A stretch of 64,000 bases of DNA, taken from an archaeon (GTDB taxonomy: Archaea > Nanobdellota > Nanobdellia > Woesearchaeales > GW2011-AR9). The stretch's first letter is position 1; every line of letters begins with the position of its first letter. The notes beneath the pieces are model-generated. The model made no database searches, was not told where the DNA came from, and worked only from the letters and a program-made list of their open reading frames with translations. The stretch lies in contig JBDRMB010000029.1 of NCBI GenBank assembly GCA_043812455.1, positions 8,303 to 72,302 on the forward strand, written 5' to 3'. This document shows, piece by piece, positions 1,059 through 63,373 of the stretch. Position numbers and translations under genes: made by a program.

Positions 1059-1202
1059 ATGAAACAGTTCACAATCACTAAAAAAATAGCAAAACATGGT
1101 AATCAAGCAATCATAGTTATACCTAGACTTATCGAGAAAGATCTTAAACCAGGAACTGTTGTTGAAGTAAAATTTAATATCCTGAAGGAGGCTAAAGAAT
1201 AA
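1059..1202 (+). CDS. small AbrB/MazE-type swapped-hairpin DNA-binding protein (47 aa), not in ORF track
   Basis: ATG 1059 to TAA 1200..1202 translates to MKQFTITKKIAKHGNQAIIVIPRLIEKDLKPGTVVEVKFNILKEAKE. The pattern hGNxxhhhIPxxhxxxLxLxxGDxVEh is typical of AbrB/SpoVT/MazE. Its stop overlaps the kinase ATG as TAATG. Confidence 0.6.
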   Translation: MKQFTITKKIAKHGNQAIIVIPRLIEKDLKPGTVVEVKFNILKEAKE

Positions 1203-3289
1203 TGGTAGCTCCAGACTTATTAGGACCAGTAAGAACAGTTGAAGATCTCATTAAACAATTATTGCCTTCTGAGAAATATAAAAATATTCAATTTTGGAAA
1301 TCTGGTGGAACAAGAGATCTTTACATGGCAGAATGGGGTCCAGGCAATGAAAAAAGAATTATTAAAGTAGACAAAAGTGAATTAGAAAGTCCTAGAGCTC
1401 AAAGACATGTTGAAAGAGGTTATGATACCTCTAATGATATCAGAGCTTTATCTGAGATATCAAACCCCGAAAGACACAACTTGATGCGTTTGGTTGATTA
1501 TTTTGATTTCAGCAAAACGCAAGGAATTACTGTTGCTGTTGAAAGACATTTTGAATCTCAATCTTTGGAAGAAAGAGTTCAAGATAAACCTTTAAAACTT
1601 AAAGAATTTGAAACTGTATTTTCGCAAGTGATTGAAGGTGCAAATTATTTCATTAACACTTGTGGAATGTACCATCGTGATCTAAAAGCTTCTAATATCC
1701 TAGTTAATGATGAACTAGAAGTCAGAATTACAGATTTTGCAAACGCTTGTAAGAAAAATGAAGTTCAGAAAAAATATATGCCAACTGCTGGCGGTCATTG
1801 GGTAAGTGATCCATTAGTTTTCTTCAATGGTTCTGAAAATGAATACAGAGAAACTTCAGAAATTTATGCAATTGGAACAGAGATGTTTTATGCTTTGACA
1901 GGGGAACATATTTTTGAGTATGATGCAGATAATGGTACAGGGATTTCTTGTTTTACAGGTGAAAGTTTACTTGATAAGAATGGTATTGTTGACAGAACAA
2001 GACATAATGCTACTTTAGATTATGCTCTCAAAAGATTACCATGGAGAATCAGAAGGAAATATGGTGAAGTTATCAAAAAAAGTTTAAGTTTGGATGACGA
2101 AGTAAGATATTCAAAAATCAGTGAATTGAAAAAAGATTTTGAAAATGAGAAAAATATGCCAAGTTGGTATCAGTATTTAACTTCAAGACTTATATTATCC
2201 TCACTATTGATTACGACAACTGGTTTTGCAATTGGTGGTGTTGGAATAATGCATCACTTAGAAAAAAAACTTGAAGAAACTCAAGCAGTTGCAGAAGAAA
2301 ATGCCAAATATTATGTCAAGCCAGAATGGGATGGCTTAAATCTTGAAATTAATAACAATCTTACAGAACTTGATTTAAAATTGTACATTCTTAATCGCAA
2401 AGGTCTTGATAATGATAGAGATTATGATAATTATCCCGAGTCTCATTTCCTAAAAGTTAACCCTGGAGAAAAATTGTCAGGATCAATTTCTTTTAGAGAA
2501 GTGGCGGGAGCCGATAATGGTGCTCTTGGACAGTGCAATGTTTCATTCTTCACTAGAGTATACATCGAAGGTTTTCCTGCTCAAGAGGAGTTTTATGTTC
2601 ATACAAGAGATCATGATAATTCTATAATTTATGGTATGGGAGCTATGGGATTGTACCAATTTCCAAACATTATTATTCCTGAGAACTTGCCTGACGGAAC
2701 TTATAATTTAATCATAGAGGCTTACTCTCCAAAAGATGATTCATATTTAAATGATAATATTATTGATGGTATGGAGAACTTAAGGTTCGATGAGTTCAGT
2801 CAGATTATACTAAGAAATCGTGTTCCTATAGTTGTTGGAAATCCTGAAGCTTTTGTGTCTGCAGAATATATGCGTGGAGATCTTGGACCAGCTATCCAAA
2901 TAAATAATCTGATAAGGAATCGTTATCATACCCCTGAGAATCTTTCAGGTAACTTAACATTTGAATTAGATTTGCTTGGAACTGACTATCACAAAGAATT
3001 TACTCCTCAAGGTCATTATGGTTCTTTATGGTTACCAAAAAAAGACAATCCAGAAGAACGGATATTACAAATAGTCACTCAGGACTCTGAAGGAGAAATG
3101 ATTTATTATACTTTTATCCCCATGGTTAATGAAATCCTTAACGAAGAAACTAGATATTCGCAATGGCGGCCAGGAATCCCAGGACCAGAATTCTACGAAA
3201 CTACAATTAAGTTAGGTCAAGCGTTGCGAGGAGAATCACATGATGAGCCCAGAGAGGGGACTGTTGGCCAGGTAGAAGTTCCTAATTGA
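1202..3289 (+). CDS. receptor-type Ser/Thr protein kinase-like membrane protein (cytoplasmic kinase domain, one TM, extracellular C-terminal domain)
   Basis: 695 aa. It has a catalytic-loop motif YHRDLKASNILV (HRDLKxxN) and a DFG-like TDFANA. A hydrophobic segment LILSSLLITTTGFAIGGVGIM lies near residue 340, followed by about 340 aa of predicted extracellular sequence. Confidence 0.7.
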   Translation: MVAPDLLGPVRTVEDLIKQLLPSEKYKNIQFWKSGGTRDLYMAEWGPGNEKRIIKVDKSELESPRAQRHVERGYDTSNDIRALSEISNPERHNLMRLVDYFDFSKTQGITVAVERHFESQSLEERVQDKPLKLKEFETVFSQVIEGANYFINTCGMYHRDLKASNILVNDELEVRITDFANACKKNEVQKKYMPTAGGHWVSDPLVFFNGSENEYRETSEIYAIGTEMFYALTGEHIFEYDADNGTGISCFTGESLLDKNGIVDRTRHNATLDYALKRLPWRIRRKYGEVIKKSLSLDDEVRYSKISELKKDFENEKNMPSWYQYLTSRLILSSLLITTTGFAIGGVGIMHHLEKKLEETQAVAEENAKYYVKPEWDGLNLEINNNLTELDLKLYILNRKGLDNDRDYDNYPESHFLKVNPGEKLSGSISFREVAGADNGALGQCNVSFFTRVYIEGFPAQEEFYVHTRDHDNSIIYGMGAMGLYQFPNIIIPENLPDGTYNLIIEAYSPKDDSYLNDNIIDGMENLRFDEFSQIILRNRVPIVVGNPEAFVSAEYMRGDLGPAIQINNLIRNRYHTPENLSGNLTFELDLLGTDYHKEFTPQGHYGSLWLPKKDNPEERILQIVTQDSEGEMIYYTFIPMVNEILNEETRYSQWRPGIPGPEFYETTIKLGQALRGESHDEPREGTVGQVEVPN

Positions 3290-4141
3290 AGCCATTAGAT
3301 GGTATACCATTAATGCTTCTTTACCTGTTTTCTTTTTCAGAAGGTTATATCCATCCCAATACAACAACTCTTTTTCTTTTTCGTGAACTTTTGCCAAAAG
3401 ATGAATGTCTTTGTTAAGATAAGACTTTTTTATAATTTCAAATATTTCTTGATTATCTTCTAAAAGTTTAATAATTTCCTTTGAAATGGGTATTTTACTG
3501 GTTAACAATTTACTGTTCAAATGATAAATTTCCCTTTGCCCTTGATTAATCAAAGTCATGAATGCCCATAAGAATTCAGAATTGTCTGCCTGAATTCTTT
3601 TTTTTGAAATAACTCTCCTACAAAAATTGTCAAATCTTTGTATTCTTTCTTCAACCTCAATAAATTCGTCATTCTTTACGTTACCGTTAATTCTATCTTT
3701 TGTTATTTCAAACAGTTCAGTAATATTATATAATATTTTTTTGAAGATTGTATCAAATTGGTCTGCAGTCGGTTCAGTTATATTTTCTATTGTGCAATAT
3801 CCCTTAGCTTTCTTTACAATTTCAAAACCCAATAGTCTTGTTTTTGTCACTTCGTTAAGAATTTTGAATTGAGATGGTTTGTCGTAAAATACTTTGACTT
3901 TATCGTAACCTCTTCGATAAGTGTTTGTAATTAATGTTCTTATTGATGATTCTGTTAAGTTTACTAATTTAATTTCTATTTCTGATTTAGTTTCAATTCC
4001 ACTTATTGAAATGATAAGGTTATTTCCAACCGCTTCGATATCAATCTCTGAACCTTTTTGGGCTTTGTTTTCTTTAACCCATTTGCTAGGTAAGCTGATC
4101 ATTAAAGTGCTTGTTCCTTGTTTTACTAGCTTTCTTCGCAT
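3236..4141 (-). CDS. AbrB-domain / PhoU-domain transcriptional regulator (archaeal phosphate-uptake-regulator-like)
   Basis: 301 aa. The N-terminus MRRKLVKQGTSTLMISLPSKWVKENKAQKGSEIDIE is a swapped-hairpin AbrB fold, followed by a helical PhoU-like body. The 3' end overlaps the kinase gene by 54 nt in convergent orientation. Confidence 0.75.
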   Translation of the reverse strand: MRRKLVKQGTSTLMISLPSKWVKENKAQKGSEIDIEAVGNNLIISISGIETKSEIEIKLVNLTESSIRTLITNTYRRGYDKVKVFYDKPSQFKILNEVTKTRLLGFEIVKKAKGYCTIENITEPTADQFDTIFKKILYNITELFEITKDRINGNVKNDEFIEVEERIQRFDNFCRRVISKKRIQADNSEFLWAFMTLINQGQREIYHLNSKLLTSKIPISKEIIKLLEDNQEIFEIIKKSYLNKDIHLLAKVHEKEKELLYWDGYNLLKKKTGKEALMVYHLMASIRNFYLANSPLSGLIM

Positions 4142-24139: not shown

Positions 24140-26328
24140 ATCAGTTCTGGCACAGGCAATTCCTGGCTGTAATCATCCATGTTCGATAGGAACTCATAAT
24201 AGTAATCTTCATTGCTCGGACTAACTTCAAGAACATGGAACTGAATCATACTTCCTTCCTGCAAACTGGTCCAAGGTAATAACCACTGACCGCGGTAACC
24301 GCCGATCAAATCTTCTTCATTAACAAGATAAATCAAAACATCATATTCAAAATCTGCACCAGACAATAACTGCACTTTAGTTTCTTCTAAGATTTCAGTA
24401 TCTAACGTTGGTGAATAAACTAGCTCTACTTTATGTAATTCAGCACCACCTTGCAAGAACTCTCCTAGTTCTAATACATCAGAACTGGCACCGCCAGTTT
24501 CAAGATCCGTACCAGTTTCATTTCCAATAGTCTCATTTGTAGCTGTTTCAACTGGGGCTACTGGTGCACTTCCCGGGAAATATTTTATAGTTACTAAAGC
24601 AGTTTCATCATCATCTAATGCCTTACCATCTGATATGTCAAAACATAACACATCTTCACCTTGCATTTCAATTTCTTCATCAGTACAATCTCTTTCTTCA
24701 ACTTGATGCTTAACAACTTCAACATCCGCCATACTAAATTCAACTAGTGGTCTCATCTCAAGTTCCACAACTAAGTCGTCACTTGAAACTACATATTGCC
24801 AAGTTTCAAGATAACTTTCTTTATTACCGCGCATGATTGCTGCTGCACAGTATGGGAATTGATCACTAAGTCCAGCAACATCGCCTCGCTCTTCAAAGTC
24901 ATATTCAGTTTGACCCATTTCACACTTATAACGGATACAAGTATAACTTATGTTAACACCATCTAAAGGTTCTCTATAATACACACCTGTTGCTTCATTA
25001 GAAACTAAAGAATAAGTTTCTATACTCATCGGAACATAACTTGGACTGTTATAACAATAATCTTCATCAGTCACACTTGGAATATTTTGCGATTCTCTAG
25101 CAATTGCCGGACCTTTGTAAGGATAATTTCCAATCAGGTTTACAGTAAATGCCATCTGAAAAACTCCACCACTTTGTTCATCACGCAATTCAATAATTAC
25201 TGGGTAAATTACATCGTAAGTAAACTTCCAATTCTGGATACATAAGAAAGATAACATTGTTCCTCCGCCTAGACGATCACTGGTCATATAATTTCCTTCT
25301 CGAGGAGTTACCTGGAAAGTAAACGGATAAGTATTTTCAAATTTAAAAACTCCAGAAATGTCTTCATCATAATGTTCAATATCCCACACATAATGGTTTT
25401 GATAATAAGGTAAGTCATCAGGGAAATCTTGATAATCTGTCCCGTCAATCTTAAGGTTACGCAAATTTATCCGTAACATATCTTTTAAAGTATTTTCAGC
25501 AGTATCTACTCTCCACTTCTTTTCGTTACAGCTTATTTCCATTCCAGCAACTGGTACATCTTCATGCTCTAACGCGATCAAATCCTGAGTAATATCTTCT
25601 AATTTTAAAGTATCCATTTCAGAGTCAAGAACTGCGTCAGCCATTTCATATAAACTTTTGAACCTGATCCGAGATTCAGCAGTATGATCAATCAGTTCTG
25701 CTACCAATTCCCCTTCTTTATCTTTAACCAATAAGTTCCAATGAACATTAAACTGAGTTTTCCCACTAAGAAATTCAGTATCTGCTTCAATGTCGCTAAT
25801 TTCTACAATGTCATAAGTTTCCTGGAAAACTTCTGGATCGAACAAACAAGAAGGAACATTTTCTTCTATATAATCATCAACTTGAATTTTAATCTCATCT
25901 AAACTTGGCTGATCAATCTCAGCACCATTTGCCCATAACGGAACATACATAAACGGTGAAAGTTGGATACTCCAAGTGATATCATCAGTATAACGTTCTG
26001 GAACTTTAACATAACCGCCTTGTTTTCCAGCCAAAAGTAACGCTTCTTCCCCAACATTAGTTATACAATCAGTAACATAAGTTTCGACTGCCCCTTTCTG
26101 GATTAAAATTAAATCCTGACCAGGAAGTTTGATAAGTTCTTGCTGTAAAAGAATGATTAAAGCTACTGCAATTAACAAAATTATTCCTAAAATTATGTAA
26201 ACTGTAACCTGAGCTTTTCTATTTGATCTGTTGAGTATGTTGAGCGCATTTTTTCTTGCGTTGAGCCTTGAAAATAGGTTAGAACTAGCACTACTTTTAC
26301 CTCTATCACCACTCTTACTAAACATCAC
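24136..26328 (-). CDS. type II membrane-anchored protein with large extracellular domain (730 aa); first gene of the surface operon
   Basis: A basic cytoplasmic N-terminus is followed by a TM (VYIILGIILLIAVALIILL) and an acidic roughly 650-aa extracellular region. ATGA overlaps the giant gene. Confidence 0.5.
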   Translation of the reverse strand: MMFSKSGDRGKSSASSNLFSRLNARKNALNILNRSNRKAQVTVYIILGIILLIAVALIILLQQELIKLPGQDLILIQKGAVETYVTDCITNVGEEALLLAGKQGGYVKVPERYTDDITWSIQLSPFMYVPLWANGAEIDQPSLDEIKIQVDDYIEENVPSCLFDPEVFQETYDIVEISDIEADTEFLSGKTQFNVHWNLLVKDKEGELVAELIDHTAESRIRFKSLYEMADAVLDSEMDTLKLEDITQDLIALEHEDVPVAGMEISCNEKKWRVDTAENTLKDMLRINLRNLKIDGTDYQDFPDDLPYYQNHYVWDIEHYDEDISGVFKFENTYPFTFQVTPREGNYMTSDRLGGGTMLSFLCIQNWKFTYDVIYPVIIELRDEQSGGVFQMAFTVNLIGNYPYKGPAIARESQNIPSVTDEDYCYNSPSYVPMSIETYSLVSNEATGVYYREPLDGVNISYTCIRYKCEMGQTEYDFEERGDVAGLSDQFPYCAAAIMRGNKESYLETWQYVVSSDDLVVELEMRPLVEFSMADVEVVKHQVEERDCTDEEIEMQGEDVLCFDISDGKALDDDETALVTIKYFPGSAPVAPVETATNETIGNETGTDLETGGASSDVLELGEFLQGGAELHKVELVYSPTLDTEILEETKVQLLSGADFEYDVLIYLVNEEDLIGGYRGQWLLPWTSLQEGSMIQFHVLEVSPSNEDYYYEFLSNMDDYSQELPVPELI

Positions 26329-27946: not shown

Positions 27947-29089
27947 TCACCCCACTACAAGGTTAATTAATTTGTTTTGTTTTCTGTCTAATGAATATCC
28001 AATGTATTTATAAAATTTTGTGAGGCTACCTTTCCTAGCAATATGTAAATCAAAGCAGAGACTGTATCTTCCAGCATGTGTTCTACTCAAGCGACCTGCA
28101 AAAATTCTGTTTTTAATATCAAGTTCCTTAAGAATTTTGGATTCTCCTTGCAAAAGTTTAGGAGCTTTATTTAACTCACTCAGTAACTTTTTATCTTCAA
28201 TTAGTCCTGATGCTTTCTTGATTGTAATAACCTTGGTTATATGTCCTGTAGGGAATTTGTTAATCAACATAAACTTATCAAGCAGTTCTAATTCTTTTAT
28301 TTGTTTTTTAGTTAAATTATTTAGATGCCTATAACGCGAAAGTGTGATATACCCATAATTTCCTTTCTTATCTTTGTACACTGAAGATTCATCATCAAAC
28401 GCTGCCTTCAAGTAATTCGCTTTCATTTCTTTAGTTCCTTTCTTTATCAACCAAGGTACTTCACCATCAACTGTCGCTTTTCTTCCAGAAATTGCTCCAA
28501 CTCTTAATAAGGACTCACCAATTATAGATGAGCCAATTCTAAGCAGAATACAATTTCTTACAAATTCTTTTTGTATGTGAACCTCGCCAAATAATTTATT
28601 TATTATTTTTATAAAATTCTCTGCAGATTGCTCCTCACCAGCAGCATATTTTGTTCTAAATTTGTTTCTTGCTTTCTTATCTTTGAAAATGCAACCATCA
28701 GAAACAATTAATCCTAAAAGATAAGCACCATCTTCATTGTTGAGGTTTATTGGAAATTTTGGATTTTTTATAGAAATAACTTTCCCTTTTTTAGTCATCA
28801 AGATTTTATCATTCATATAATTATAATTAATCCCTAAGTAATCCAACAATTTCTTAAGTTTCATAACAGAAACCATATTAACACCTTTATTGTTTATCAG
28901 ATTATAAAATGTGGGACTACTCAAGTTCAATTCATTACAAAGCAGAGACAGGTTACCAGCTTTTTTAATTCCTTTTAGGATTAATTTTTCTAGTAGATCA
29001 TCTTTTAGTTCAAATAGAAATGTATCTTTAAGTTGATACCAATGAGTTTCCCAATGAGGGATTGCCAAATCTTCATTAATTGAATTCAT
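27947..29089 (-). CDS. LAGLIDADG-family (double-motif) homing-endonuclease-like protein with N-terminal HTH-like region
   Basis: The two motifs are [14 protein letters not shown] and [14 protein letters not shown] (LAGLIDADG-like), about 100 aa apart. N-terminal [24 protein letters not shown] resembles an HTH. The start is trimmed to ATG 29089, preceded by SD GGAGGT. The stop lies 2 nt before the cysS ATG. Confidence 0.6.
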
Positions 29090-29098
29090 TTTTATTAC

Positions 29099-29128
29099 CT
29101 CCAAGTTTCCACCTACTTAAACTTGGAG
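29099..29128 (-). promoter_or_regulatory. 10-bp perfect inverted repeat (CTCCAAGTTT / AAACTTGGAG) whose 3' arm contains the SD of the LAGLIDADG gene
   Basis: The arms are 29099-29108 and 29119-29128 with a 10-nt loop. The SD GGAGGT (minus strand) lies at 29097-29102. The predicted mRNA hairpin would occlude the ribosome-binding site. Confidence 0.3.
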
Positions 29129-54703: not shown

Positions 54704-55408
54704 TCATTCTCCACCCAGATATACTTTCTTTATTTTTTTGTTATGAATAATCTCTTTCCCACCAACTAAAGCAATCTTGCCATCTTCCAACAAATAAGTT
54801 CTGTCAGCCATCTCAATAGCTTTCTTGGCGTTTTGTTCAACAATCAGAATTGCAAGACCTTCATCCCTCAACTTTTCAATAATGGCAAAAATTTCTTGCT
54901 GTAATTTCGGACTCAATCCTAAAGAAGGTTCATCCATCAACAATAATCTTGGCTTTTGCATTAAAGATCTGCCAATCGCTAACATTTGTCGTTGCCCGCC
55001 ACTTAGCGCAAACGCTTGCTGTTTTCTTCGCTCTTTCAAGATTGGAAATTTTTGATAAACTTCTTCCAACCTTTGCTTGATGATATCTGAATTTCTAATG
55101 TGATTACAAGCAATTTCTAAATTTTCCTGAACAGTTAAGTGGTCAAACACAATTCTTCCTTGTGGCATATAACTTACTCTTCTAGAAAGGAGTTGATGAG
55201 TTTTTAATTTTGAGATGTTTTTGTTATTGAAAACTATTGCACCAGAATACTGGTCAGCTATACTGTACACAGATTTGATAACTGTACTCTTTCCAGCACC
55301 GTTCGGTCCGATTAAAGCGACAACTTCATTTTCATTTACTTCTAGGTCCACTCCTTTCAGTATCTTAAGTTCCCCGTACCCAGCACGTAAATCTTTTATT
55401 TTTAACAT
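54704..55408 (-). CDS. livF: branched-chain amino acid ABC transporter ATP-binding protein (LivF-like); start trimmed to Met 55408
   Basis: Walker A GPNGAGKST, the ABC signature LSGGQRQMLAIGRSL, and Walker B LLLMDEPS. Confidence 0.8.
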   Translation of the reverse strand: MLKIKDLRAGYGELKILKGVDLEVNENEVVALIGPNGAGKSTVIKSVYSIADQYSGAIVFNNKNISKLKTHQLLSRRVSYMPQGRIVFDHLTVQENLEIACNHIRNSDIIKQRLEEVYQKFPILKERRKQQAFALSGGQRQMLAIGRSLMQKPRLLLMDEPSLGLSPKLQQEIFAIIEKLRDEGLAILIVEQNAKKAIEMADRTYLLEDGKIALVGGKEIIHNKKIKKVYLGGE

Positions 55409-55415
55409 TTTAATC

Positions 55416-56150
55416 TCACCCTCCCAGATACGCCTCAAGAACCTTTTTGTCATTCTGCACTTCCTTAGGCTTGCCGTGTGCAATAACCTTCCCAGCGTCA
55501 AGAACAAAAACATAATCCGCAATGTCCATCACAAAATTCATATCGTGCTCAATAAGAATTACGGTTTCGCCTTGACCTTTCAAATTTCTCAAAATCTCTT
55601 TGATCTTAACTCTTAATTTCGGATTAACCCCAGCAACAGGTTCATCAAGCATCAACAGGTAATGTGGTTTAGCAATCGCAACTGCAAGATCAAGTAATTT
55701 CCGTTGACCGTAACTTAAATCATTAGCATAAGTTTCAAGAGGTTTGTTCAACCCCACTAACTCAAGAACTTTTTTGATCTTATCAATACTATTACGTTTC
55801 TGGTTCAGGATACTCCACAACATACTTTCATCTTTCTTAGAGAAAGTTATTCCCAAATGATCTTGAATCGTTAAATTTTTGAATAGTCTAACTTCCTGGA
55901 AAGTTCTTGAAACTCCAGCTTTAGCAATCTTATAATCTTCAAGTTTAGTAAGATCTCTTTTACCTAAAGTTATTTTCCCAGTATCAGGTTTGATCAATTT
56001 TGAAATCACATTGAATAGAGTTGTCTTTCCAGAACCATTCGGACCAATGATAGCTGTAATTTCTCCTTGCTCAACGGTTAGCTGACAATTATCTAATGCT
56101 TTCACACCGCCAAAATTTTTACTGATTCCTCGGATTTCTAACAGACTCAT
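55416..56150 (-). CDS. livG: branched-chain amino acid ABC transporter ATP-binding protein (LivG-like)
   Basis: Walker A GPNGSGKTT, the signature LSYGQRKLLDLAVAI, and Walker B LLMLDEPVAG. Confidence 0.85.
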   Translation of the reverse strand: MSLLEIRGISKNFGGVKALDNCQLTVEQGEITAIIGPNGSGKTTLFNVISKLIKPDTGKITLGKRDLTKLEDYKIAKAGVSRTFQEVRLFKNLTIQDHLGITFSKKDESMLWSILNQKRNSIDKIKKVLELVGLNKPLETYANDLSYGQRKLLDLAVAIAKPHYLLMLDEPVAGVNPKLRVKIKEILRNLKGQGETVILIEHDMNFVMDIADYVFVLDAGKVIAHGKPKEVQNDKKVLEAYLGG

Positions 56151-57019
56151 TCTAGATCAACCCTCCCAAATATTCCCCGTGGTCGGTAAATTAAGATCAG
56201 CAATAATACTACTGCATAGAAAACCATCCTTAACGGACCTAACAGATGTCCAGGTAATGGAATAAACCGTAGCAATTCTAATAAGATGAAAATTATAAAA
56301 GTTCCAATGATCGAACCACTGATTGAAGCAATCCCACCGATAATTACAATTGTGAAAATGAAAATAACTTCTAAAATTGTAAAGTGAGTCGGATCAATGT
56401 AAGATAAATAATGTGCTAGAAGACTACCAGCAATCCCTGCAAAGAACGCAGAAATCATCATCGCTTTATACTTTAATCTAAAAGTATTCTTACCAAGTAC
56501 TCTTAACCCAACTTCATCATCTCTGGTAGCTTCCAATAATCTGCCAAATGGTGAACGCATCAACAAATACATGATAAGAACTGAGAGAACTGTGATAATT
56601 GCAACTAGTATTAAGTAAGACCAACTTGCAGAAAATGCTATTCCAAAAATTTCCGGTTTTGGAATACCTGGCAAGCCTAAAGGTCCACCGGTTAAACTGC
56701 TCCAATTAATAAGTACTGCATAAACAACAAAACTAAACCCTAAAGTTGTCAATGCCAAATAATCTCCCCTTAGTCTTTTGGTAGCACTTGTTAATATAAA
56801 ACCAAACAAGCTGGCAAACAACCCTGCGATGATCAATGAGAAGAAAAACGGTACTCCGGCAATATTCAATAATGCTGAAGTGTAAGCTCCTACTGCAAAG
56901 AAAGCCACATGACCTAAGTTCAATAATCCAGTATAACCTAATGCAACATTCAAGCTTACTGCTAGGATAATATAAATACCAATCATGATTAAGATGTGAA
57001 TAAGGTATGCTTCAATCAT
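56147..57019 (-). CDS. livM: branched-chain amino acid ABC transporter permease (LivM-like)
   Basis: 290 aa with about 8 hydrophobic helices, positioned between the ATPase and LivH-like genes. Confidence 0.75.
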   Translation of the reverse strand: MIEAYLIHILIMIGIYIILAVSLNVALGYTGLLNLGHVAFFAVGAYTSALLNIAGVPFFFSLIIAGLFASLFGFILTSATKRLRGDYLALTTLGFSFVVYAVLINWSSLTGGPLGLPGIPKPEIFGIAFSASWSYLILVAIITVLSVLIMYLLMRSPFGRLLEATRDDEVGLRVLGKNTFRLKYKAMMISAFFAGIAGSLLAHYLSYIDPTHFTILEVIFIFTIVIIGGIASISGSIIGTFIIFILLELLRFIPLPGHLLGPLRMVFYAVVLLLILIYRPRGIFGRVDLE

Positions 57020-57891
57020 TTTCTCGCCCCCTTATCAACACCAAACAATCCTTGTGGTCTCAGTAACAAAAATAAGAACAGTAAGATGAAAGTAATCGCA
57101 TCCTTAAATCCAGAAGGCAAAAACCAAATTCCAAAATTTTCTGCTAAACCCAAAATATAACTTCCAATAATTGAGCCTGGTACAAAACCTATCCCTCCTA
57201 TAATTGCGCCGGTAAAACCTTTGATGATAAGATTAGTTCCCATAGCCGTCATCAAAGTTTGTTCTAACGCTATCAAGATACCAGCAACTCCTGCCAAGAA
57301 TGAACCAAGTATGAAAGAATAATCTGCAATTTTTTTACTGTCAATACCGGTTATGTCAGCTAATTCCTTATTATCAGCAACTGCCCGGAAATTTCTTCCA
57401 AGCTTAGTTTTTTTCATCAGCAGATAAAGTAAGATGAATAATACAACTGAAACAATAAAAATGATAATTTGTAGTACTGTTACTGTTGCTCCAAAAATAG
57501 TAATAGCTAACGGCCGGACAAATTCTAACGTTTTGATGTTAGGCCCGAACGCAATCAATATTAAATTTTCAAACAAAACTAATAATCCTACGGAAGCGAT
57601 TAATAATATAACATTAGACGATTTTCTCTGCTGTAACGGTCTGTAAATTAATCTGGACATCAATAATCCAAATATGCTTGTTAAGGTTAAAGTTAATAAA
57701 CATGATATGACAAAAGGCATTCCCAGCATTGAGAACGTCCAATACAGCAAGTAAGAGCTAACTACTACTGCCACACCATGTGCAAAGTGCATGAACTTGT
57801 TTGTGGAATATACTAGCGAGAACCCACAGGCTACGAGAGCATAGATTGATCCTATTACAAGTGAGTTTGCTAGTATTTGCGTGAATGTCAT
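57016..57891 (-). CDS. livH: branched-chain amino acid ABC transporter permease (LivH-like)
   Basis: 291 aa, polytopic. ATGA overlaps livM. Confidence 0.75.
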   Translation of the reverse strand: MTFTQILANSLVIGSIYALVACGFSLVYSTNKFMHFAHGVAVVVSSYLLYWTFSMLGMPFVISCLLTLTLTSIFGLLMSRLIYRPLQQRKSSNVILLIASVGLLVLFENLILIAFGPNIKTLEFVRPLAITIFGATVTVLQIIIFIVSVVLFILLYLLMKKTKLGRNFRAVADNKELADITGIDSKKIADYSFILGSFLAGVAGILIALEQTLMTAMGTNLIIKGFTGAIIGGIGFVPGSIIGSYILGLAENFGIWFLPSGFKDAITFILLFLFLLLRPQGLFGVDKGARK

Positions 57892-58212
57892 CTACTCTTC
57901 CCTCAACTTTTCTAAATTCTCATAAGTAAGTGGAACGTCATAGCATTCTCTTTCTTTTCCACCGTTAATACAATATGAAAGATAAGTTTCACGTAATCCA
58001 TCCTTGTCCCCATCATATGAATGAATTGATAAGGCATTATCAAAAGAATTAAGATAATCAGGATTATCAATAGGAGAATTTTTAACCACAAATCCAAATA
58101 CACCAATAGCAGATAAGAGACAAACACCAAATACTACTTGTGCTTTGATTTCTCCAGGAATTTTATAGTACAAGTCCTCTATTGTGTCTATTAGTTTCAT
58201 TCCTCCAAACAC
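57892..58212 (-). CDS. small single-TM protein, paralogue A (DGDKDG..ETYL motif)
   Basis: The TM is VVFGVCLLSAIGVFGFVV. A shared motif with the next gene is NSPIDNPDYL...DGDKDGLRETYLSY...ENLEKL. The true start may be Met5 at 58200. Confidence 0.4.
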   Translation of the reverse strand: MFGGMKLIDTIEDLYYKIPGEIKAQVVFGVCLLSAIGVFGFVVKNSPIDNPDYLNSFDNALSIHSYDGDKDGLRETYLSYCINGGKERECYDVPLTYENLEKLREE

Positions 58213-58505
58213 CCAACCATCTTCTCAAGGTTATCATCTGTCAAAGGAATTCTTACTTTACCATCATCTTGTTTAACATCGAGATAAGTTTCCTTGTAAC
58301 CATCTTTATCAGTATCTTTGACCACGATTGAAACTTCTTCATCTTTCAAATAATCTGGAGATACATTATTATTAGATAATGTTTTAGTTATAGCAAATGT
58401 TAATGACATAGATGCCATTCCTACTGCTACCCCTAACAAATAATCTTTGAATCCTTCCATTTCCCATTCACCTATTCCTAGTAAAACGATTATACAAAGC
58501 ATCAA
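58197..58505 (-). CDS. small single-TM protein, paralogue B (DTDKDGYKETYL motif)
   Basis: The TM is LLGVAVGMASMSLTFAI. The motif is SPDYL...DTDKDGYKETYLDV...DNLEKM. Start uncertain (Met1 or Met16). Confidence 0.4.
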   Translation of the reverse strand: MMLCIIVLLGIGEWEMEGFKDYLLGVAVGMASMSLTFAITKTLSNNNVSPDYLKDEEVSIVVKDTDKDGYKETYLDVKQDDGKVRIPLTDDNLEKMVGCLEE

Positions 58506-58737
58506 CTATGGCCCCACCCAGAATCCCTGTGCTATAAGAAGGAACTGCAATTACGCCCATTACAAGAACATCCAATGTCCCCCTACCAACAGTACTTTCA
58601 ATATTCATAGCATCATTAATTGCGGTACCTATTTCATATCCGCCCCAAAATGTAGCAATAGAAGCTCCAACAAATCCTGCTCCAACACATAGCATCTTAA
58701 GGTTACTAGGTTCATCATTATCAGTATATCTTTTCAT
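58468..58737 (-). CDS. small glycine-zipper membrane protein (start trimmed to MKRYTDND)
   Basis: GAGFVGASIATFWGGYEIG and GVIAVPSYSTGILGGAI are GxxxG-type glycine-zipper helices. Confidence 0.35.
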   Translation of the reverse strand: MKRYTDNDEPSNLKMLCVGAGFVGASIATFWGGYEIGTAINDAMNIESTVGRGTLDVLVMGVIAVPSYSTGILGGAIVDALYNRFTRNR

Positions 58738-58800
58738 TTTTATTCCTCCATCTAACAACCCCAGAAACCACAAAATAAAAAAAATAAAAAAAAGTAAAAT

Positions 58801-59940
58801 TTACTTCAAAAGTACAGACTCACTATCTTTGATCATGAAGAAATCATAACCAGCAGATGCAATGTCACCAATCTCATCAAACTGAATCAAATCATTAGAT
58901 TCTCCTGAATAAGAAGTATCTCTTAACGCTGCTTTGATATCGTTTGCATCAGTACTGCCAGCATCTTCAATCGCTTCTACCATTACCATGAAAGCATCGT
59001 ATCCTAAAGATGCTGCAATGGAAATCTCTAGATTTTCATAACCAGGTAAAGCGTGGATTTTGTTTTCAAAAGCATTTGACTGTTCGATACTTACAGTAGA
59101 GTAAATTGCTCCGTCACCATAACCGCTGGCCCAAACTTCTTCACCCTGCCAAGCATCGCCGCCAAGCATTGGTAAATTTAAACTAAGTTCTTCTGCTTGC
59201 TTGAAAAATGCTACCGCGTTAGTTGGATAGATTGGAGCAAAGATTGCTTCTGCGCCACTGTTTTTAATTTTGGTAATTTCAGTTCTGAAATCAGTATCTG
59301 TTTGTAACACTCCGCTTTCGTAAACAATTTCGCCGCCCATTTCTTCAAATGATTTAGTGAAAACGTTTTTCATACCTTCTCCCCAATCATTCTTGGTGTA
59401 AACCAAAGCAACTTTATCATAACCAAGTTCTTCCATCATATATTCAGCACCGACAACTCCTTGCAATGAATCGCTAGGGTAAATTCTGAATATACAATCA
59501 CCTACACTTGTAAGATCTGGAGCAGACGCTGCTACCATCATAACAGGTACGTTAGCACTTTGTGCAATAGGAATTGCTGGACCTGCTGCTGCGGAACAGA
59601 TTGGACCAACAATAGCATCAACCTGATCAACATTAACTTCTTTGTTAAAAGCTGCAACACTACTAGCGCTACAACTATCATCTTCTAAAACAACCTCAAC
59701 TTCCTGACCGCTAATTCCACCTTGTGCATTAACTTCATTTAAAGCTAAAGTAATTCCCGCAAAAGCATTTTCTCCCCAAGAAGCTGCTTCACCAGTCATT
59801 GGTAATACAACACCAATCTTAATTGGATCATCACTTCCAACTTTCACATATTCTCCAGTCGGACTTTGTGTACATCCAACTACTGAAAATAGTAACATTG
59901 CTGTTACTAAACTAAACATTAGTACATTCATTATTTTCAT
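58801..59940 (-). CDS. livK: branched-chain amino acid ABC transporter substrate-binding lipoprotein (LivK/LivJ-like)
   Basis: The signal plus lipobox is MLLFSVVGCTQS. The LIVBP family pattern is IKIGVVLPMTGEAASWGENAFAGITLALNEVNAQGGISGQEV. Confidence 0.8.
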   Translation of the reverse strand: MKIMNVLMFSLVTAMLLFSVVGCTQSPTGEYVKVGSDDPIKIGVVLPMTGEAASWGENAFAGITLALNEVNAQGGISGQEVEVVLEDDSCSASSVAAFNKEVNVDQVDAIVGPICSAAAGPAIPIAQSANVPVMMVAASAPDLTSVGDCIFRIYPSDSLQGVVGAEYMMEELGYDKVALVYTKNDWGEGMKNVFTKSFEEMGGEIVYESGVLQTDTDFRTEITKIKNSGAEAIFAPIYPTNAVAFFKQAEELSLNLPMLGGDAWQGEEVWASGYGDGAIYSTVSIEQSNAFENKIHALPGYENLEISIAASLGYDAFMVMVEAIEDAGSTDANDIKAALRDTSYSGESNDLIQFDEIGDIASAGYDFFMIKDSESVLLK

Positions 59941-60031
59941 TTTTTACTTTCCCCCACAATTTTTTAATTGTACCTAAAAAGTGGTTAATGATTCCTGAGA
60001 AAAATATATTAATTTTCTGTTAGTATACTAT

Positions 60032-60055
60032 ATATCTATATATATATATAGATAT
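60032..60055. promoter_or_regulatory. perfect 24-nt palindrome ATATCTATATATATATATAGATAT in divergent intergenic region upstream of the second AbrB-PhoU gene
   Basis: Read from the sequence. It could be TATA-box-rich promoter DNA, an operator, or both. Confidence 0.4.
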
Positions 60056-60096
60056 TTTAGAAAGATTTATATAAAATCATTGCCAAGAACAACTAA

Positions 60097-60999
60097 ATGA
60101 AAAGAAAAATTGTCAAACTCGGACCTGCGACATTAGTAGTCAGTTTACCAAGCAAGTGGGTAAGAAAAATTAATGTTAAAGTGGGAGATGAAGTAGAATT
60201 AGAAGAAAGAGACGATGGTCTGTTAATTAGTCCAGAAAGAACTAGTAGAACGATGAAAGACAATTTAGAATTCATTAAGCCAAATCGCTTAATGCGCAGA
60301 ATTGTTGCAGCTAAATATATGAAAGGTGCTGATGAGATTGATATTAAAGTTGGATCGACAGCAATCTCAAGAGAAATCCAGAAAAGAGTTGATCAAATGA
60401 TTGGTATGGAAATTGTTGATCAATCAAAAGATAAACTGCTAATTAAAAGTCTTGGGATCAGCGAAGAAGATAATATTGAAACAATCTCTAAAAGAATATT
60501 ATATTTACTCCAATCAATTTCTGATGAAAGTCTTAATGCCATTAAAAACAGAGAGACTGATTTGGAATATCTGAAAGATATGGAACTTAACGTTAACAAG
60601 TTTTCAGAATATTGTTTTCGATTATTAAATAAGAAAGGACATCCTCAACCGAGCAAAACTGCTAGTTTTTATTGCAGTTTATTTTTGTTAGAAGAACTGG
60701 CCGATGAATACAAGAAACTTATCGATCACATTAATGATAACAAGGTTAAATTAAATAATAAATTAACTGATATTTATGCTAAAATTAATTCTTATCAAAA
60801 AAGCATGAACAAGATCTTTCTTAAATACAATGAAGAGAAAGCATTATCTTTAGCCAAAGAATATGATATTATTTCTAAAGATATTGAACTTGAACTGAAG
60901 AAGACCAAATCCGTTAAGGAAGCAATTGTCTTAAAAACTTTTGAAAACATTTCCCATATCATAATTAAGATCATGAATGAGTTCATGAATATCAATTAA
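60097..60999 (+). CDS. AbrB-domain / PhoU-domain transcriptional regulator, second copy
   Basis: The N-terminus MKRKIVKLGPATLVVSLPSKWVRKINVKVGDEVELEE is a swapped-hairpin, with a helical PhoU-like remainder. It is a paralogue of 3236..4141. Confidence 0.75.
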   Translation: MKRKIVKLGPATLVVSLPSKWVRKINVKVGDEVELEERDDGLLISPERTSRTMKDNLEFIKPNRLMRRIVAAKYMKGADEIDIKVGSTAISREIQKRVDQMIGMEIVDQSKDKLLIKSLGISEEDNIETISKRILYLLQSISDESLNAIKNRETDLEYLKDMELNVNKFSEYCFRLLNKKGHPQPSKTASFYCSLFLLEELADEYKKLIDHINDNKVKLNNKLTDIYAKINSYQKSMNKIFLKYNEEKALSLAKEYDIISKDIELELKKTKSVKEAIVLKTFENISHIIIKIMNEFMNIN

Positions 61000-63095
61000 A
61001 AATCTTCTTCCCGTGGAGTAGCAAAGTATAAAGAACCAATATTATCACTAGCAGGACCATAATTCATCGCAGCATAAACTAATTCTCTGATGTCTTTAGA
61101 TATTATTTCATTATACGGATTGTTTAAATCAATCAAATTATAAGCGCATTCGGGACAACTAGAAGACCCCATATTACCAAGATCTCTTTCTTGAGGAGTA
61201 TAAAATTCATACAATGCTGCTTTTATATATCCATTATGTTTTTCTACCAATTGTGCTAATCTAGCAGCACCTTGATCCAAATTTTCTAATGGGTCAATTG
61301 TATTATCCCCATCTTTAAAATCTCGGTCAGCAAGTAAGGGGTCAAGAATATTTATATCAATTGTCCTCTCACTTTCTCGCATTATTCCTTGCCAACCATA
61401 GAGACGATTACTCTCCAACATATTTCTCAAAACTTTTGGTTCTAAAGAATATTTGTTTGCAATTTGATTTACAACTTCATCACCAATTTCATAACGTCCA
61501 TTTTCTACTTTACCATCAAGAATATCACTTTTAGCTGTTTCAAATGATCCGGTGAAGTTTATTCGATAGAGCTCTTCGCGAATTCCCTGCATATCAAAAA
61601 GCAAATCTTCCTGCCTTTCAATTTCATTCCTTCTTTCTTCCAAATACCTTGCACCAACTGCAACACCAACAATTGCAGATAGTCCAACAACTGGAAGCAT
61701 AACTCGATAAATTGCCCTTTTCCATTTTTTTTTTCTAATCTCTTTCCTTATTTTGGCAATCTCATCACTAGCGTTCTCTTCTACCAACTCAGTCAGAGGT
61801 ACCGGGGAAGCATTCTCCTGAGTCATGGCCTCGTGCGGATTACATCTCTCTTTCAACTGACGATAATCTCCTTCCATAAGTTCTCTAACAGAATATTTTC
61901 CGACAAACGGTCTATTCTCCCTGACAGCTTTCAAAAATTCTTGACTTACGATTCCCCGTGCCGTGGCATCGCCAATCCTCCTGGTAGCATCATTATACAA
62001 TACATTAGCCATGTTTTGCAACTTCTGAGCACTTAAATCATCTTCAGCGTTATCAGCCATCTTAATATACTTCTTAACAGCAACAAGTTCTTGCAAGATT
62101 TTGTTCTTAACGTAAATTCCAAAAGATTGAGTTTGCATCTCTTCATCATCCTCATGTAACTTCTCAGCAGCGTACATTGTTAATTGATATTCCGTATCCA
62201 TATCTAAGTTAGATTTGGTCAGCAATTTCCTCAAATCAAATTCAAAGAATCCATCAGAACAGGCAGCTGCCCAATCTAAATAAACAAACTTTCCATTAAC
62301 AAGAATATTGTTACCATGTAAATCACCATGAATGTTACTTCCTTTAGCAGCATTGAGATCGTCACCGATATCTTGCTTAAACAATTCGCACAACTTAGAA
62401 TCATCAGAATAAGACCTTACAAAATATTCATTAAAATCTGCTAACCTTTTTGGAAGGTCTAACCGTTCTCTAAATTCTTTAATATTAAGTACAGTATACA
62501 AACCAACATAATCATCAATCACTTTTTCGAGCAATGCAACATTATTTGCTTCATAATTTATATCCTGCAATGTTTTCAAAGTACTTCCTTCTACGAAAGG
62601 TGTGATAGTAATTCTTTTTCTTCTGTTGATAAAAGGCAGTGTTGGTACTTGACCTTCATAGGCTGTTCCTTCCAACAAATCACTTAATTCTCTTTGAGTC
62701 CTAACTGCAATTTTGAAATCTTCTTTCTTTGAAGATTTTTTTACTATATGTCTGATTGCAACTTTATCAGTTAATTGAAGAACTGCTTCTGCCACATAAC
62801 CGTCTTGTTCAGAAGTGTTTAATGTTACAGCATCTAAGAACCTTAATTCAGCTGCAAGAACATCAATACCTTTATCAGTTACAGCATTAGCTATCTTGCT
62901 TAATTGTTGGGGTGAGATTACACCACTTGCACTTAAACGTTCCAGTTCTGGCAATACAATTTGCTCTATGTATGCATCACAAGTTCTGTTTCCTAATGTT
63001 TCTCGTAATGGAAGATTCATAGCTTGGGCAAAGTGTTGTTTTCCAAACTTTTTTACTAAGTCCATATCAATCCTTCCCGGTACTTCTGAACTCAT
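60996..63095 (-). CDS. membrane-anchored protein-kinase-like protein (APH/CotS/RIO-like fold), one TM, extracellular C-terminal domain
   Basis: The beta3 Lys context is VAIRHIVKK. The catalytic loop is NIHGDLHGNNILVN. The metal-binding element is VYLDWAAA. The TM is AIYRVMLPVVGLSAIVGVAVGA near residue 460. About 230 aa of extracellular sequence have weak SLT-like spacing (RESER ... GAARLAQL ... YIKAALYEFY). Confidence 0.65.
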   Translation of the reverse strand: MSSEVPGRIDMDLVKKFGKQHFAQAMNLPLRETLGNRTCDAYIEQIVLPELERLSASGVISPQQLSKIANAVTDKGIDVLAAELRFLDAVTLNTSEQDGYVAEAVLQLTDKVAIRHIVKKSSKKEDFKIAVRTQRELSDLLEGTAYEGQVPTLPFINRRKRITITPFVEGSTLKTLQDINYEANNVALLEKVIDDYVGLYTVLNIKEFRERLDLPKRLADFNEYFVRSYSDDSKLCELFKQDIGDDLNAAKGSNIHGDLHGNNILVNGKFVYLDWAAACSDGFFEFDLRKLLTKSNLDMDTEYQLTMYAAEKLHEDDEEMQTQSFGIYVKNKILQELVAVKKYIKMADNAEDDLSAQKLQNMANVLYNDATRRIGDATARGIVSQEFLKAVRENRPFVGKYSVRELMEGDYRQLKERCNPHEAMTQENASPVPLTELVEENASDEIAKIRKEIRKKKWKRAIYRVMLPVVGLSAIVGVAVGARYLEERRNEIERQEDLLFDMQGIREELYRINFTGSFETAKSDILDGKVENGRYEIGDEVVNQIANKYSLEPKVLRNMLESNRLYGWQGIMRESERTIDINILDPLLADRDFKDGDNTIDPLENLDQGAARLAQLVEKHNGYIKAALYEFYTPQERDLGNMGSSSCPECAYNLIDLNNPYNEIISKDIRELVYAAMNYGPASDNIGSLYFATPREEDF

Positions 63096-63226
63096 TTTTT
63101 ATTCCCCATCCGTTTAAGCGCATATTCAAAAGCGTGCGATCTATTTCTGAACTTTCCAGTTAGAACACTAGCATCTACATCTACTAAAACATCTTCATTT
63201 ACAGTGATACTGATCTTACGCTTCAT
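63092..63226 (-). CDS. small ribbon-helix-helix (CopG/Arc-like) DNA-binding protein, 44 aa, not in ORF track
   Basis: The translation is MKRKISITVNEDVLVDVDASVLTGKFRNRSHAFEYALKRMGNKK, with a beta-strand (KISITV) followed by two helices as in RHH. Its stop TGA overlaps the kinase ATG (ATGA). A TATA-like TTTATAAA lies about 27 nt upstream. Confidence 0.5.
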   Translation of the reverse strand: MKRKISITVNEDVLVDVDASVLTGKFRNRSHAFEYALKRMGNKK

Positions 63227-63373
63227 ACAGTGTGATATTATCCCACCCCATTTATAAAGCTTTTGGTTATTTGTTACTTAGAAGGAGTTACAGATACACG
63301 GAGTCACAATAAATCCTATTGATCAAAAAATAAGAATTAAAATATTAAGAAATAAAATAAAAAAAGGAAGAAT

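Follow-up and report, generated by a model that had tools for sequence, protein, structure and literature searches.

A convergent membrane-kinase and AbrB-PhoU gene pair at the core of a putative signalling cassette in contigs labelled Woesearchaeota or Nanoarchaeota

What links a predicted membrane kinase gene to the AbrB-PhoU regulator gene that converges on its 3' end, and is such a pairing more than a chance meeting of neighbours? The question is raised by a window of 64,000 nucleotides (nt), meaning the whole stretch analysed here, on archaeal contig JBDRMB010000029.1 of assembly GCA_043812455.1, in which the pairing occurs twice, as modules 1 and 2. Module 2, the subject of this analysis, has the order RHH→kinase→←AbrB-PhoU, where RHH denotes a small ribbon-helix-helix protein, and its AbrB-PhoU gene usually diverges from an amino-acid-type ATP-binding cassette (ABC) importer of the LivK/LivHMGF type. 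The DNA is chromosomal and comes from an archaeon of low GC content, and genes for ribosomal proteins (L34e, L14e-like), enolase, GAPDH, malate dehydrogenase, and tRNA synthetases are found around it. The region is best explained as a chromosomal cassette for signal transduction, met in this analysis almost solely in contigs labelled Woesearchaeota or Nanoarchaeota, and it is highly probable that the anatomy outlined below is correct and that a functional link exists.

The initial annotation, made from the letters of the window and its open reading frames (ORFs), had described overlapping ORFs, a palindrome, kinase motifs, and a transmembrane helix in module 2, and all of these are present at the positions listed in Table 1. 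The stop codon of the RHH ORF overlaps the start of the kinase ORF through ATGA, as had been noted, and the kinase and AbrB-PhoU genes overlap by the predicted 4 nt at their converging ends, where their stop codons share TTAA (60996-60999). The RHH and kinase genes are read as a translationally coupled pair behind a leaderless-type promoter, and this bicistron is probably leaderless. The transcripts of both the RHH and the AbrB-PhoU genes are probably of this kind, as B recognition element (BRE)/TATA sequences lie 23-24 nt before each ATG. No terminator was found between the convergent genes by a scan for bacterial promoters and terminators, which returned fewer sites than shuffled sequences and is uninformative for an archaeal host. 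In the module-2 subtype, the unit also takes in the divergent Liv-type importer (54704..59940).

The gene order recurs across genomes. A kinase-based search recovered four lineages with 34-76% identity, and in all of them the kinase gene converges on an AbrB-PhoU gene that diverges from genes for a LivK-type binding protein and LivHMGF. A small RHH ORF precedes the kinase gene in three of the four, and the genes flanking the RHH side differ among the lineages (ribosomal genes, an NTP transferase, SIMPL, and GINS). A regulator-based scan with a 13-sequence alignment, taking one genome per species and reading the results with purpose-made hidden Markov models (HMMs), gave 18 loci, and every locus with the module-2 kinase type keeps the same order. 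Scanning metagenomes with the kinase alignment added four loci, three of which reach past the kinase and keep the order, the fourth being a 3.9-kb fragment of the window's own contig. With duplicates collapsed, ~14 independent lineages, mostly labelled Woese- or Nanoarchaeota, have the order RHH→kinase→←AbrB-PhoU, and a contig-end fragment adds to these. The initial annotation had considered the pattern unlikely to be chance and had named recurrence elsewhere as one of the points on which the module would stand or fall; its presence in many independent genomes bears this view out. The records of the loci are labelled Woesearchaeota, Nanoarchaeota/Nanoarchaeia, or 'archaeon', apart from four carrying the unconfirmed label 'uncultured Methanosarcinales archaeon'. 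In one lineage (L006), a DDE_Tnp_1 transposase gene lies just upstream of the kinase gene (4775-5707) in one of four near-identical contigs, and this lineage is also without the RHH gene.

Distant AbrB-PhoU genes (24-36% identical) extend the picture to 13 further lineages, 10 of which face a directly convergent kinase or kinase-like gene, so that such a gene is present in about 24 of 27 lineages overall. Seven of these 10 are Hanks-type by Pfam (module 1, which is conserved in the related genome L036, together with L022, L023, L024, L025, L033, and L038), L031 gives a weak APH match, and in L032 and L021 only motifs mark the gene as kinase-like. Upstream, the small partner is an RHH protein in L025, AbrB-like in module 1, L021, L022, L023, and L024, and an untyped 49-amino-acid ORF in L038, and none was found upstream of the kinase in L031-L033. 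The exceptions are L035, where the kinase is two genes away, L037, where the AbrB-PhoU gene faces a 277-amino-acid protein, and the Bathyarchaeia contig L026, where two AbrB-PhoU-like genes stand on either side of what is probably a pst-phoU phosphate ABC operon (recognised by eye from ORF translations), with no kinase. The spacing of the facing stop codons runs from gaps of 2-6 nt to overlaps of 54 nt, with an exceptional gap of 286 nt in L032.

The kinase of L024 is a chimera, with an N-terminus 30% identical to the Hanks kinase of module 1 and a transmembrane segment and ectodomain 29% identical to the module-2 protein, in the same neighbourhood. This suggests that APH-type and Hanks-type domains do the same job. 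Both kinase types are found with RHH or AbrB small partners (L024, L025, L022, L023, and L038), and the invariant core of the system is taken to be the AbrB-PhoU regulator and its convergent kinase, the small DNA-binding protein and the transporter being accessories. Within the window, the regulators of the two modules are anciently diverged paralogues (27% identity, E 7e-20), and the two kinases, one APH-type and the other Hanks-type, are unrelated outside the catalytic loop. Both the assignment of the kinases to different protein-kinase-like subfamilies and the preference for a modular system type over a recent duplication, as put forward in the initial annotation, are in keeping with these comparisons.

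Variants of the arrangement were also seen. L021 (1-3161) has a further RHH gene (3030..3161, minus strand), 7 kb from the AbrB-PhoU triad, that shares 4 nt with the gene of a Hanks kinase of at least 1,011 amino acids, so the RHH-kinase pairing also occurs alone, though the far end of this kinase gene runs off the locus. In L033 (5465-9879), three tandem Hanks-type kinase genes (849, 580, and at least 608 amino acids) converge on the AbrB-PhoU gene.

The 699-amino-acid protein is predicted to be a membrane kinase with an APH/choline-kinase-type fold and intact catalytic motifs. The protein contains the motifs VAIRHIVK (K119), HGDLHGNN (256-263), and YLDW (D274), which are kept without variation among 6 orthologues (35-75% identical); K119, H256, G257, D258, H260, N263, D274, and E285/D287 do not vary in these. 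The Brenner motif of APH and choline kinases, HxDxxxxN, is matched by H256-G-D258-L-H-x-x-N263, and the Mg-binding Asp (D274) and beta3 Lys (K119) are likewise in place. PF01636 is precomputed on orthologues of the kinase, and the relative P0154 passes the APH threshold at 30.2 bits. Using AlphaFold2, a model with a mean predicted local distance difference test (pLDDT) score of 68.4 was obtained, and its top Foldseek matches in the PDB are the choline kinase LicA (4r77), corramycin and capreomycin phosphotransferases, and APH(2''); the best of these structures (4r77, 8ahd/8agy, 8i8g, and 5iqc) match with probability 1.0 and TMt 0.38-0.52. The protein-kinase-like core of the initial annotation thus gains a fold, and folding as a non-kinase was not what the model returned. 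The APH fold is no proof of protein-kinase activity, and the Hanks-type domains found in the same position with the same ectodomain bear only indirectly on whether it may phosphorylate a protein substrate. A profile of the kinase family, compared with 1.8 billion representatives, matched 222 proteins, 58 of them below 1e-30, and the family is thus small.

A single hydrophobic helix (461-483) follows the sequence KKKWKR, which suggests an N-in/C-out orientation, with a cytoplasmic kinase domain and the last ~215 residues outside the cell. This topology, predicted from the positive-inside rule and from the need of the kinase domain for ATP, agrees with the one helix and extracellular tail proposed earlier. 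The N-terminal extension of the kinase (residues 29-96; 62810-63011) is helical and conserved, with invariant R31, L34, G35, L54, G58, and G76, and gives a sub-threshold match to HTH_3 at residues 55-88. Several matches were dismissed: 2wv6 (E 0.48), returned by a PDB sequence search with the 699-amino-acid protein, as chance; TCAD9, which scored 19.4 bits on the kinase against a cutoff of 40 and covered the catalytic loop only; and the ETRAMP and HTH_3 Pfam matches, which are below threshold.

The tail of the kinase was guessed in the initial annotation to be SLT- or lysozyme-like, and the family profile gives substance to this guess. At positions of about 500-610, it matches proteins of the lytic transglycosylase family PF01464 at E 1e-5 to 1e-6 across the library of 1.8 billion, and all five of the five small proteins checked among those matching the ectodomain profile are bona fide SLT lytic transglycosylases by Pfam (E 5e-15 to 2e-35). 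The relationship to SLT domains therefore holds by profile, while the catalytic glutamate does not: by HMM alignment, the E-S motif has its Glu opposite Asn N563, which is invariant in the 6 close orthologues and predominant in the wider family. The ectodomain has N-I/L-L-D-P in place of GLMQ and keeps the distal NLxxGxxxL...G....AL, and an acidic residue at the position of E561, two residues upstream of N563, occurs in about half of the family and is not conserved. As the catalytic Glu aligns with Asn, the ectodomain is probably an SLT-derived binding domain that does not cleave, and it could be read as a glycan-binding pseudoenzyme. The combination of a Pkinase domain with the SLT-like tail is found in the representatives P0148, P0150, P0162, and P0175.

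The 300-amino-acid protein is best described, from profile and model comparisons, as a regulator with AbrB, alpha/beta, and PhoU domains. MazE_antitoxin (PF04014) matches residues 11-50 of its N-terminus in Pfam with 41.9 bits against a threshold of 24.7, and a profile of 35 regulator homologues matches the PhoU structures 4q25 (E 1.7e-5) and 2i0m (E 1.2e-3) in the PDB. The LEELxD signature (LEELADE; E199 and D203 are invariant in 13 orthologues) aligns with LERIGD of 4q25, while the second PhoU repeat is degenerate. The AlphaFold2 model of the regulator has a pLDDT of 90.7 and a predicted template-modelling score (pTM) of 0.82, and its top 17 Foldseek matches in the PDB are all PhoU or PhoU-like (TMt 0.49-0.77), including 4q25, 1sum, 2i0m, 1t72, and 3l39 (TMt 0.77), with MazE (1mvf/2mrn) matching the N-terminal part. 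The Pfam PhoU model PF01895 does not match the window protein, although several homologues do carry it. The AbrB-PhoU identity given in the initial annotation is consistent with Pfam, profile, and fold comparison alike. This architecture is known in other archaea, where it is functionally uncharacterised (PMC7325993, PMC6316755).

The 44-amino-acid ORF would, from its sequence conservation, be a conserved CopG-type RHH protein. Orthologues are kept in 12 of the 14 lineages carrying the module-2 kinase, meeting the doubt raised in the initial annotation as to whether relatives have it, and codon changes in the gene are mostly synonymous (9 synonymous to 6 non-synonymous and 19 to 8). Residues M1, K2, K4, F26, S30, H31, and E34 are invariant in 14 sequences. 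RHH_1 is matched by 8 of 14 orthologues (best E 9.7e-5), while the window protein itself has no Pfam match at E<=0.1; the RHH profile matches the antitoxin Rv0298 (E 0.014) and CopG, and there are weak N-terminal matches to NikR and CdrS.

The regulatory DNA of the cassette is conserved as well. The 115 nt upstream of the AbrB-PhoU gene can be aligned across 16 loci and contain three invariant blocks. One is a TATA-like element directed towards the binding-protein gene, the middle one holds the TATATAT...ATAT dyad, and the last is the TATA box of the regulator itself. The perfect palindrome seen in the initial annotation lies in this region and is a lineage-specific perfect version of the conserved AT-rich dyad between two TATA boxes. 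The dyad found after the RHH TATA box is GTAGGA..TCCTAC-like in other lineages. In addition, a box of the form AGTRRYWA, searched as AGT[AG][AGC][TC][AGT]A with a background of 5.9e-4 per position, occurs at -50 to -56 from the RHH ATG in 11 of 13 promoters, in one orientation throughout. Of 15 intergenic regions, 13 carry it at -105 to -125 from the AbrB-PhoU ATG, in the same orientation. In the window as a whole, the AGTRGTWA motif is not enriched (14 found against 10.4 expected); it is thus not a general promoter element, and its significance rests on its fixed position across loci. The AGTRRYWA box, if real, places the kinase and importer operons under a common regulator. A further copy lies at 993-1000, 59 nt upstream of the small AbrB gene of module 1.

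Table 1. Features of module 2, its divergent importer, and module 1 in the 64,000-nt window.
Feature	Coordinates	Strand	Remarks
RHH-like ORF	63092..63226	-	44 aa, MKRKISITVNEDVLVDVD..., first gene of bicistron
699-aa kinase ORF	60996..63095	-	predicted single-pass receptor kinase
Kinase catalytic domain (about aa 98-430)	61808..62804	-	beta3 Lys K119, Brenner motif HGDLHxxN 256-263, Mg-binding D274 (YLDW)
Transmembrane helix (aa 461-483, AIYRVMLPVVGLSAIVGVAVGAR)	61647..61715	-	hydropathy scan
SLT-derived ectodomain (aa 506-639)	61179..61580	-	family profile vs PF01464 proteins
AbrB-PhoU ORF	60097..60999	+	300 aa, convergent on kinase gene
AbrB-PhoU domains	60097..60999	+	predicted AbrB/MazE swapped-hairpin DNA-binding 1-50, alpha/beta 54-118, six-helix PhoU 127-299
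AbrB-PhoU TATA box (TTTATATA)	60066..60073	+	23 nt before ATG; invariant columns in 16-locus alignment
Perfect 24-nt palindrome, half-sites ATATCTATATAT / ATATATAGATAT	60032-60055		between two divergent TATA boxes
AT-rich dyad CTATATAT-N8-ATATATAG	60028-60051		unique in window, 0 expected in 100 shuffles; candidate AbrB-PhoU operator
TATA-like element for divergent binding-protein/ABC operon	60000..60016	-	conserved ATAT core; inferred role
AGTGGTTA box	59980..59987	+	between binding-protein TATA and its ATG
AGTAACAA box	63270..63277	-	~12 nt upstream of RHH TATA box
RHH TATA box (TTTATAAA)	63251..63258	-	24 nt before ATG
GATAATATC dyad	63234-63242		after RHH TATA box, before ATG; candidate autoregulatory operator
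LivK-type periplasmic-binding-protein lipoprotein	58801..59940	-	Peripla_BP_6 E 3.9e-56; divergent from AbrB-PhoU gene
Three overlapping ORFs of about 100 aa	57892..58773	-	hydrophobic N-termini, between binding-protein gene and livH
LivH, LivM, LivG, LivF-type genes	57016..57891, 56147..57019, 55416..56150, 54704..about 55410	-	BPD_transp_2 x2, ABC_tran + BCA_ABC_TP_C, ABC_tran
Module 1: 47-aa AbrB-like protein	1059..1202	+	small partner
Module 1: Hanks-type membrane kinase	1202..3289	+	kinase
Module 1: AbrB-PhoU paralogue	3236..4141	-	54-nt 3' overlap with kinase
GTTTAAA(C/T) sites x4	4183-4230		within 48 nt upstream of module-1 regulator (ATG 4141, minus strand)

Of the 13 informative lineages, 11 have Liv-type genes diverging from the regulator. 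The three small ORFs that separate the binding-protein gene of the window from the permease genes have no Pfam match, two of them share a D-x-DKDG-x-x-ETYL motif, and similar unannotated ORFs of 118 and 120 amino acids are present in L001. Elsewhere, the place of the importer is taken by other genes: L021 (6193-9743) and L023 (6511-9491) carry paired paralogues of ~480-510 amino acids with a C-terminal PEP-utiliser mobile domain, along with a HAD-like gene in L021. In module 1, a 382-amino-acid protein (4279-5427, plus strand) with an N-terminal hydrophobic segment and no Pfam match diverges from the regulator, taking the position held by the Liv-type binding protein in module 2. The four GTTTAAA(C/T) sites between the module-1 regulator gene and this divergent gene form a candidate operator array that differs from the AT-rich dyad of module 2. 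Three of them have the 8-nt palindromic sequence GTTTAAAC, of which only one other copy exists in the 64 kb; the GTTTAAAY motif is not enriched overall in the window and is clustered at this site.

Other genes of the window include a full-length bacterial-type RelA/SpoT homologue with HD, RelA_SpoT, TGS, and ACT domains (9696-11582, minus strand), which is conserved in L036. A 1,826-amino-acid ORF (18659-24139, minus strand) whose only domains are Glucodextran_B and one resembling the purple-acid-phosphatase N-terminus is followed by a 730-amino-acid ORF without a match (24136-26328, minus strand), and both probably encode giant surface proteins. Beside the cysteinyl-tRNA synthetase gene, a 385-amino-acid ORF with a weak LAGLIDADG_3 match (27947-29104, minus strand) may be a homing-endonuclease remnant.

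How the parts of the cassette would work together can be sketched as follows. The dead-enzyme ectodomain may bind a cell-wall-type glycan, such as peptidoglycan, pseudomurein, or a similar N-acetylglucosamine polymer, belonging to a host or a neighbour, and binding outside the cell would switch the kinase inside. The kinase would then act on the AbrB-PhoU regulator, the RHH protein, or both, through phosphorylation or through membrane contact mediated by PhoU. The AbrB-PhoU protein would bind the AT-rich dyad and set the transcription of its own gene and of the importer, while the RHH protein would autoregulate the kinase operon at the dyad between TATA box and ATG. Phosphorylation of such a target has a parallel in Bacillus subtilis, where AbrB is a substrate of Hanks kinases, and PASTA kinases sense peptidoglycan (PMC6213207). 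The contact-based step is proposed because bacterial PhoU, by binding both PhoR and PstB, connects this kinase with the ABC ATPase of the Pst transporter (PMC13577022, PMC9239213, PMC4423584), and the PhoU domain may in the same way touch the ABC ATPases of the importer. The AbrB-PhoU-like genes beside the probable pst-phoU operon of L026 fit the control of a neighbouring ABC importer. Signalling is favoured over metabolism since Hanks protein-kinase domains replace the APH-type domain within one architecture and neighbourhood, the kinase is coupled to a DNA-binding protein, and the topology is that of a membrane receptor. As an overall explanation, a signalling cassette of this kind has roughly an even chance of being right, while the specific mechanism just sketched is put forward tentatively.

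Several points weigh against this explanation. The tail-to-tail arrangement precludes co-transcription of kinase and regulator and leaves their linkage unaccounted for. The Pfam APH match of the 699-amino-acid protein is sub-threshold (19.5 bits against a gathering cutoff of 23.2), the model has moderate confidence (pLDDT 68; 6 sequences), and the structures closest to the kinase domain act on small molecules and not on proteins; phosphotransfer, substrate, and ligand are all inferred. The Glu-to-Asn call depends on an HMM alignment, and the acidic residue of the E561 type leaves room for residual activity. The divergent gene is not always a transporter: PEP-utiliser-domain/HAD genes take its place in L021 and L023, and module 1 has an uncharacterised secreted protein there. 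The RHH gene is absent from 2 of 14 lineages, just as no small DNA-binding gene was found in L031-L033. Finally, the definition of the promoter boxes was post hoc, and the DNA is AT-rich. The anatomy and recurrence of the cassette are solid; its mechanism is a hypothesis.

The closest solved structures, which are LicA, the corramycin and capreomycin phosphotransferases, and APH(2''), would suit a different role, in which the APH-type domain is a salvage enzyme that phosphorylates an imported small molecule, the ectodomain captures wall material, and AbrB-PhoU is a local regulator. The APH family includes sugar and amino-sugar kinases, and the cassette adjoins an ABC importer. Yet the same transmembrane segment, SLT-like tail, and neighbourhood occur with Hanks domains in P0148, P0150, P0162, P0175, and L024, a salvage kinase would here be coupled to a DNA-binding protein, and a membrane tether is of no obvious use to a metabolic kinase, making salvage an unlikely role. 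It could also be that the link lies in the RNA, with the 3'-overlapping transcripts mutually antisense and one damping the other, so that no interaction of the proteins would be required. Almost everywhere, again excepting L032, the stop codons overlap or lie within a few nt of each other, leaving no room for a terminator, and none was found; such a link would, however, leave the constant kinase partner, of three unrelated types, unexplained, and is also compatible with signalling between the proteins. As the sole connection, antisense pairing therefore appears quite improbable, and mutual antisense control is kept as a live alternative or addition for the persistent tail-to-tail overlap.

A type II toxin-antitoxin or defence-like system, with RHH or AbrB as antitoxin, the kinase as toxin in the manner of HipBA, and the MazE-like AbrB-PhoU as a second antitoxin, would account for the small DNA-binding gene overlapping the kinase gene, for AbrB domains that score with MazE_antitoxin, for an antitoxin as the best PDB match of the RHH profile, and for the matches of the module-1 kinase to defence kinase models such as PD-T4-6. 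The PD-T4-6 and Mad6 matches are, however, generic Pkinase similarity, and the kinases are receptor-like, with a transmembrane helix and a large ectodomain. The synteny with housekeeping importer, ribosomal, and glycolytic genes is stable across lineages at 34-76% identity, with one insertion sequence (L006) as the sole mobile context, and PADLOC returned no match for the three module-2 proteins. Membership of module 2 in anti-phage or toxin-antitoxin systems was accordingly rejected, and such a function is very improbable. Hardly to be expected, too, is a phosphate-specific regulator with merely incidental kinase and Liv-type neighbours. Several sources name the regulator homologues 'phosphate uptake regulator', and the genes flanking the probable pst-phoU operon of the Bathyarchaeia contig would agree with that name, but no pst operon was seen beside AbrB-PhoU in ~24 loci labelled Woese- or Nanoarchaeota, and the association with a kinase holds across 24-100% identity.

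Little is known of how DPANN archaea, which are tiny symbionts, recognise their hosts, how they regulate uptake of metabolites that they cannot make, and what signalling systems they use. The signalling cassette offers a concrete candidate for how such cells sense wall material and adjust nutrient uptake: a surface-exposed wall-type binding domain appears wired to a kinase, with two small DNA-binding outputs that have candidate operators and with the importer as probable target. It also gives the widespread archaeal AbrB-PhoU regulators a genomic partner and extends the idea of PhoU as a bridge between kinase and transporter outside phosphate signalling. It may even be speculated, though this is doubtful, that receptor kinases of Woese-/Nanoarchaeota-type DPANN archaea, with a dead lytic transglycosylase as sensor, detect the wall of a bacterial or pseudomurein-bearing host or neighbour and that an AbrB-PhoU adaptor-regulator then switches nutrient importers on. 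If true, episymbiotic archaea would have a pathway for sensing contact with a host, and PhoU would be a general coupler of kinases and ABC transporters in settings far removed from phosphate. Kinase folds (APH-like, Hanks, and a third, atypical one) and small partners (RHH, AbrB) that can each be exchanged would then make up an unrecognised archaeal signalling architecture that replaces two-component systems. No description of the pairing of kinase and AbrB-PhoU, or of an SLT-kinase fusion, was found in the literature searched.

Among known systems, the PASTA receptor kinases of Gram-positive bacteria (PknB, PrkC, and StkP) are alike in being single-pass, N-in/C-out proteins with an extracellular, non-catalytic domain related to wall enzymes, and they are thought to report wall fragments to cytoplasmic targets that include transcription regulators (PMC6213207). 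Here, by contrast, the ectodomain is SLT-derived, the catalytic domain is APH/choline-kinase-type (Hanks-type in sister proteins), an RHH protein takes the place of a PP2C phosphatase as co-transcribed partner, and the host is an archaeon with no murein pathway shown. In the PstSCAB-PhoU-PhoR/PhoB system, too, genes for a membrane kinase, a DNA-binding regulator, a protein of the PhoU fold, and an ABC importer occur together. The archaeal cassette differs in that it has no histidine kinase or response regulator (a Pfam scan found no HisKA, HATPase, or Response_reg domains in it), PhoU is fused to AbrB, the transporter is Liv-type, and the kinase gene is convergent and not in the operon, while physical contacts between the products are hypothetical. 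The archaeal SpoVT/AbrB-PhoU regulators, such as TK2245 of Thermococcus kodakarensis and the 'PhoU' transcription factor family of Pyrococcus, have the same architecture (PMC7325993, PMC6316755); the papers found mention no kinase partner, whereas the clade described here is tied to convergent kinase genes.

The large extracellular proteins of Pace- and Woesearchaeota, which reach 3,000 amino acids, share a surface-exposed, bacterial-type lytic transglycosylase domain; they are proposed to bind bacterial cell walls and are presumed to be enzymes or adhesins (PMC8204110). The corresponding domain of the cassette is a short one, has no catalytic Glu when aligned by HMM, and is joined to a kinase by a transmembrane helix. 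HipBA resembles the RHH-kinase pair in having a small DNA-binding gene that overlaps a downstream kinase gene and a probable autoregulatory operator, while the kinases here have an APH or Hanks fold and not that of HipA, they are built like membrane receptors, their chromosomal synteny is stable, and no defence or toxin-antitoxin model matched. By analogy only, plant glycan-binding receptor kinases, among them LysM receptor kinases and the tobacco chitinase-related kinase CHRK1, which is without the catalytic Glu, also use a glycan-binding or dead glycoside-hydrolase-like ectodomain as a sensor, in an unrelated lineage and with unrelated domains. On the whole, the cassette could be seen as resembling a PASTA-kinase pathway crossed with the logic of Pst-PhoU-PhoR, and as a member of neither.

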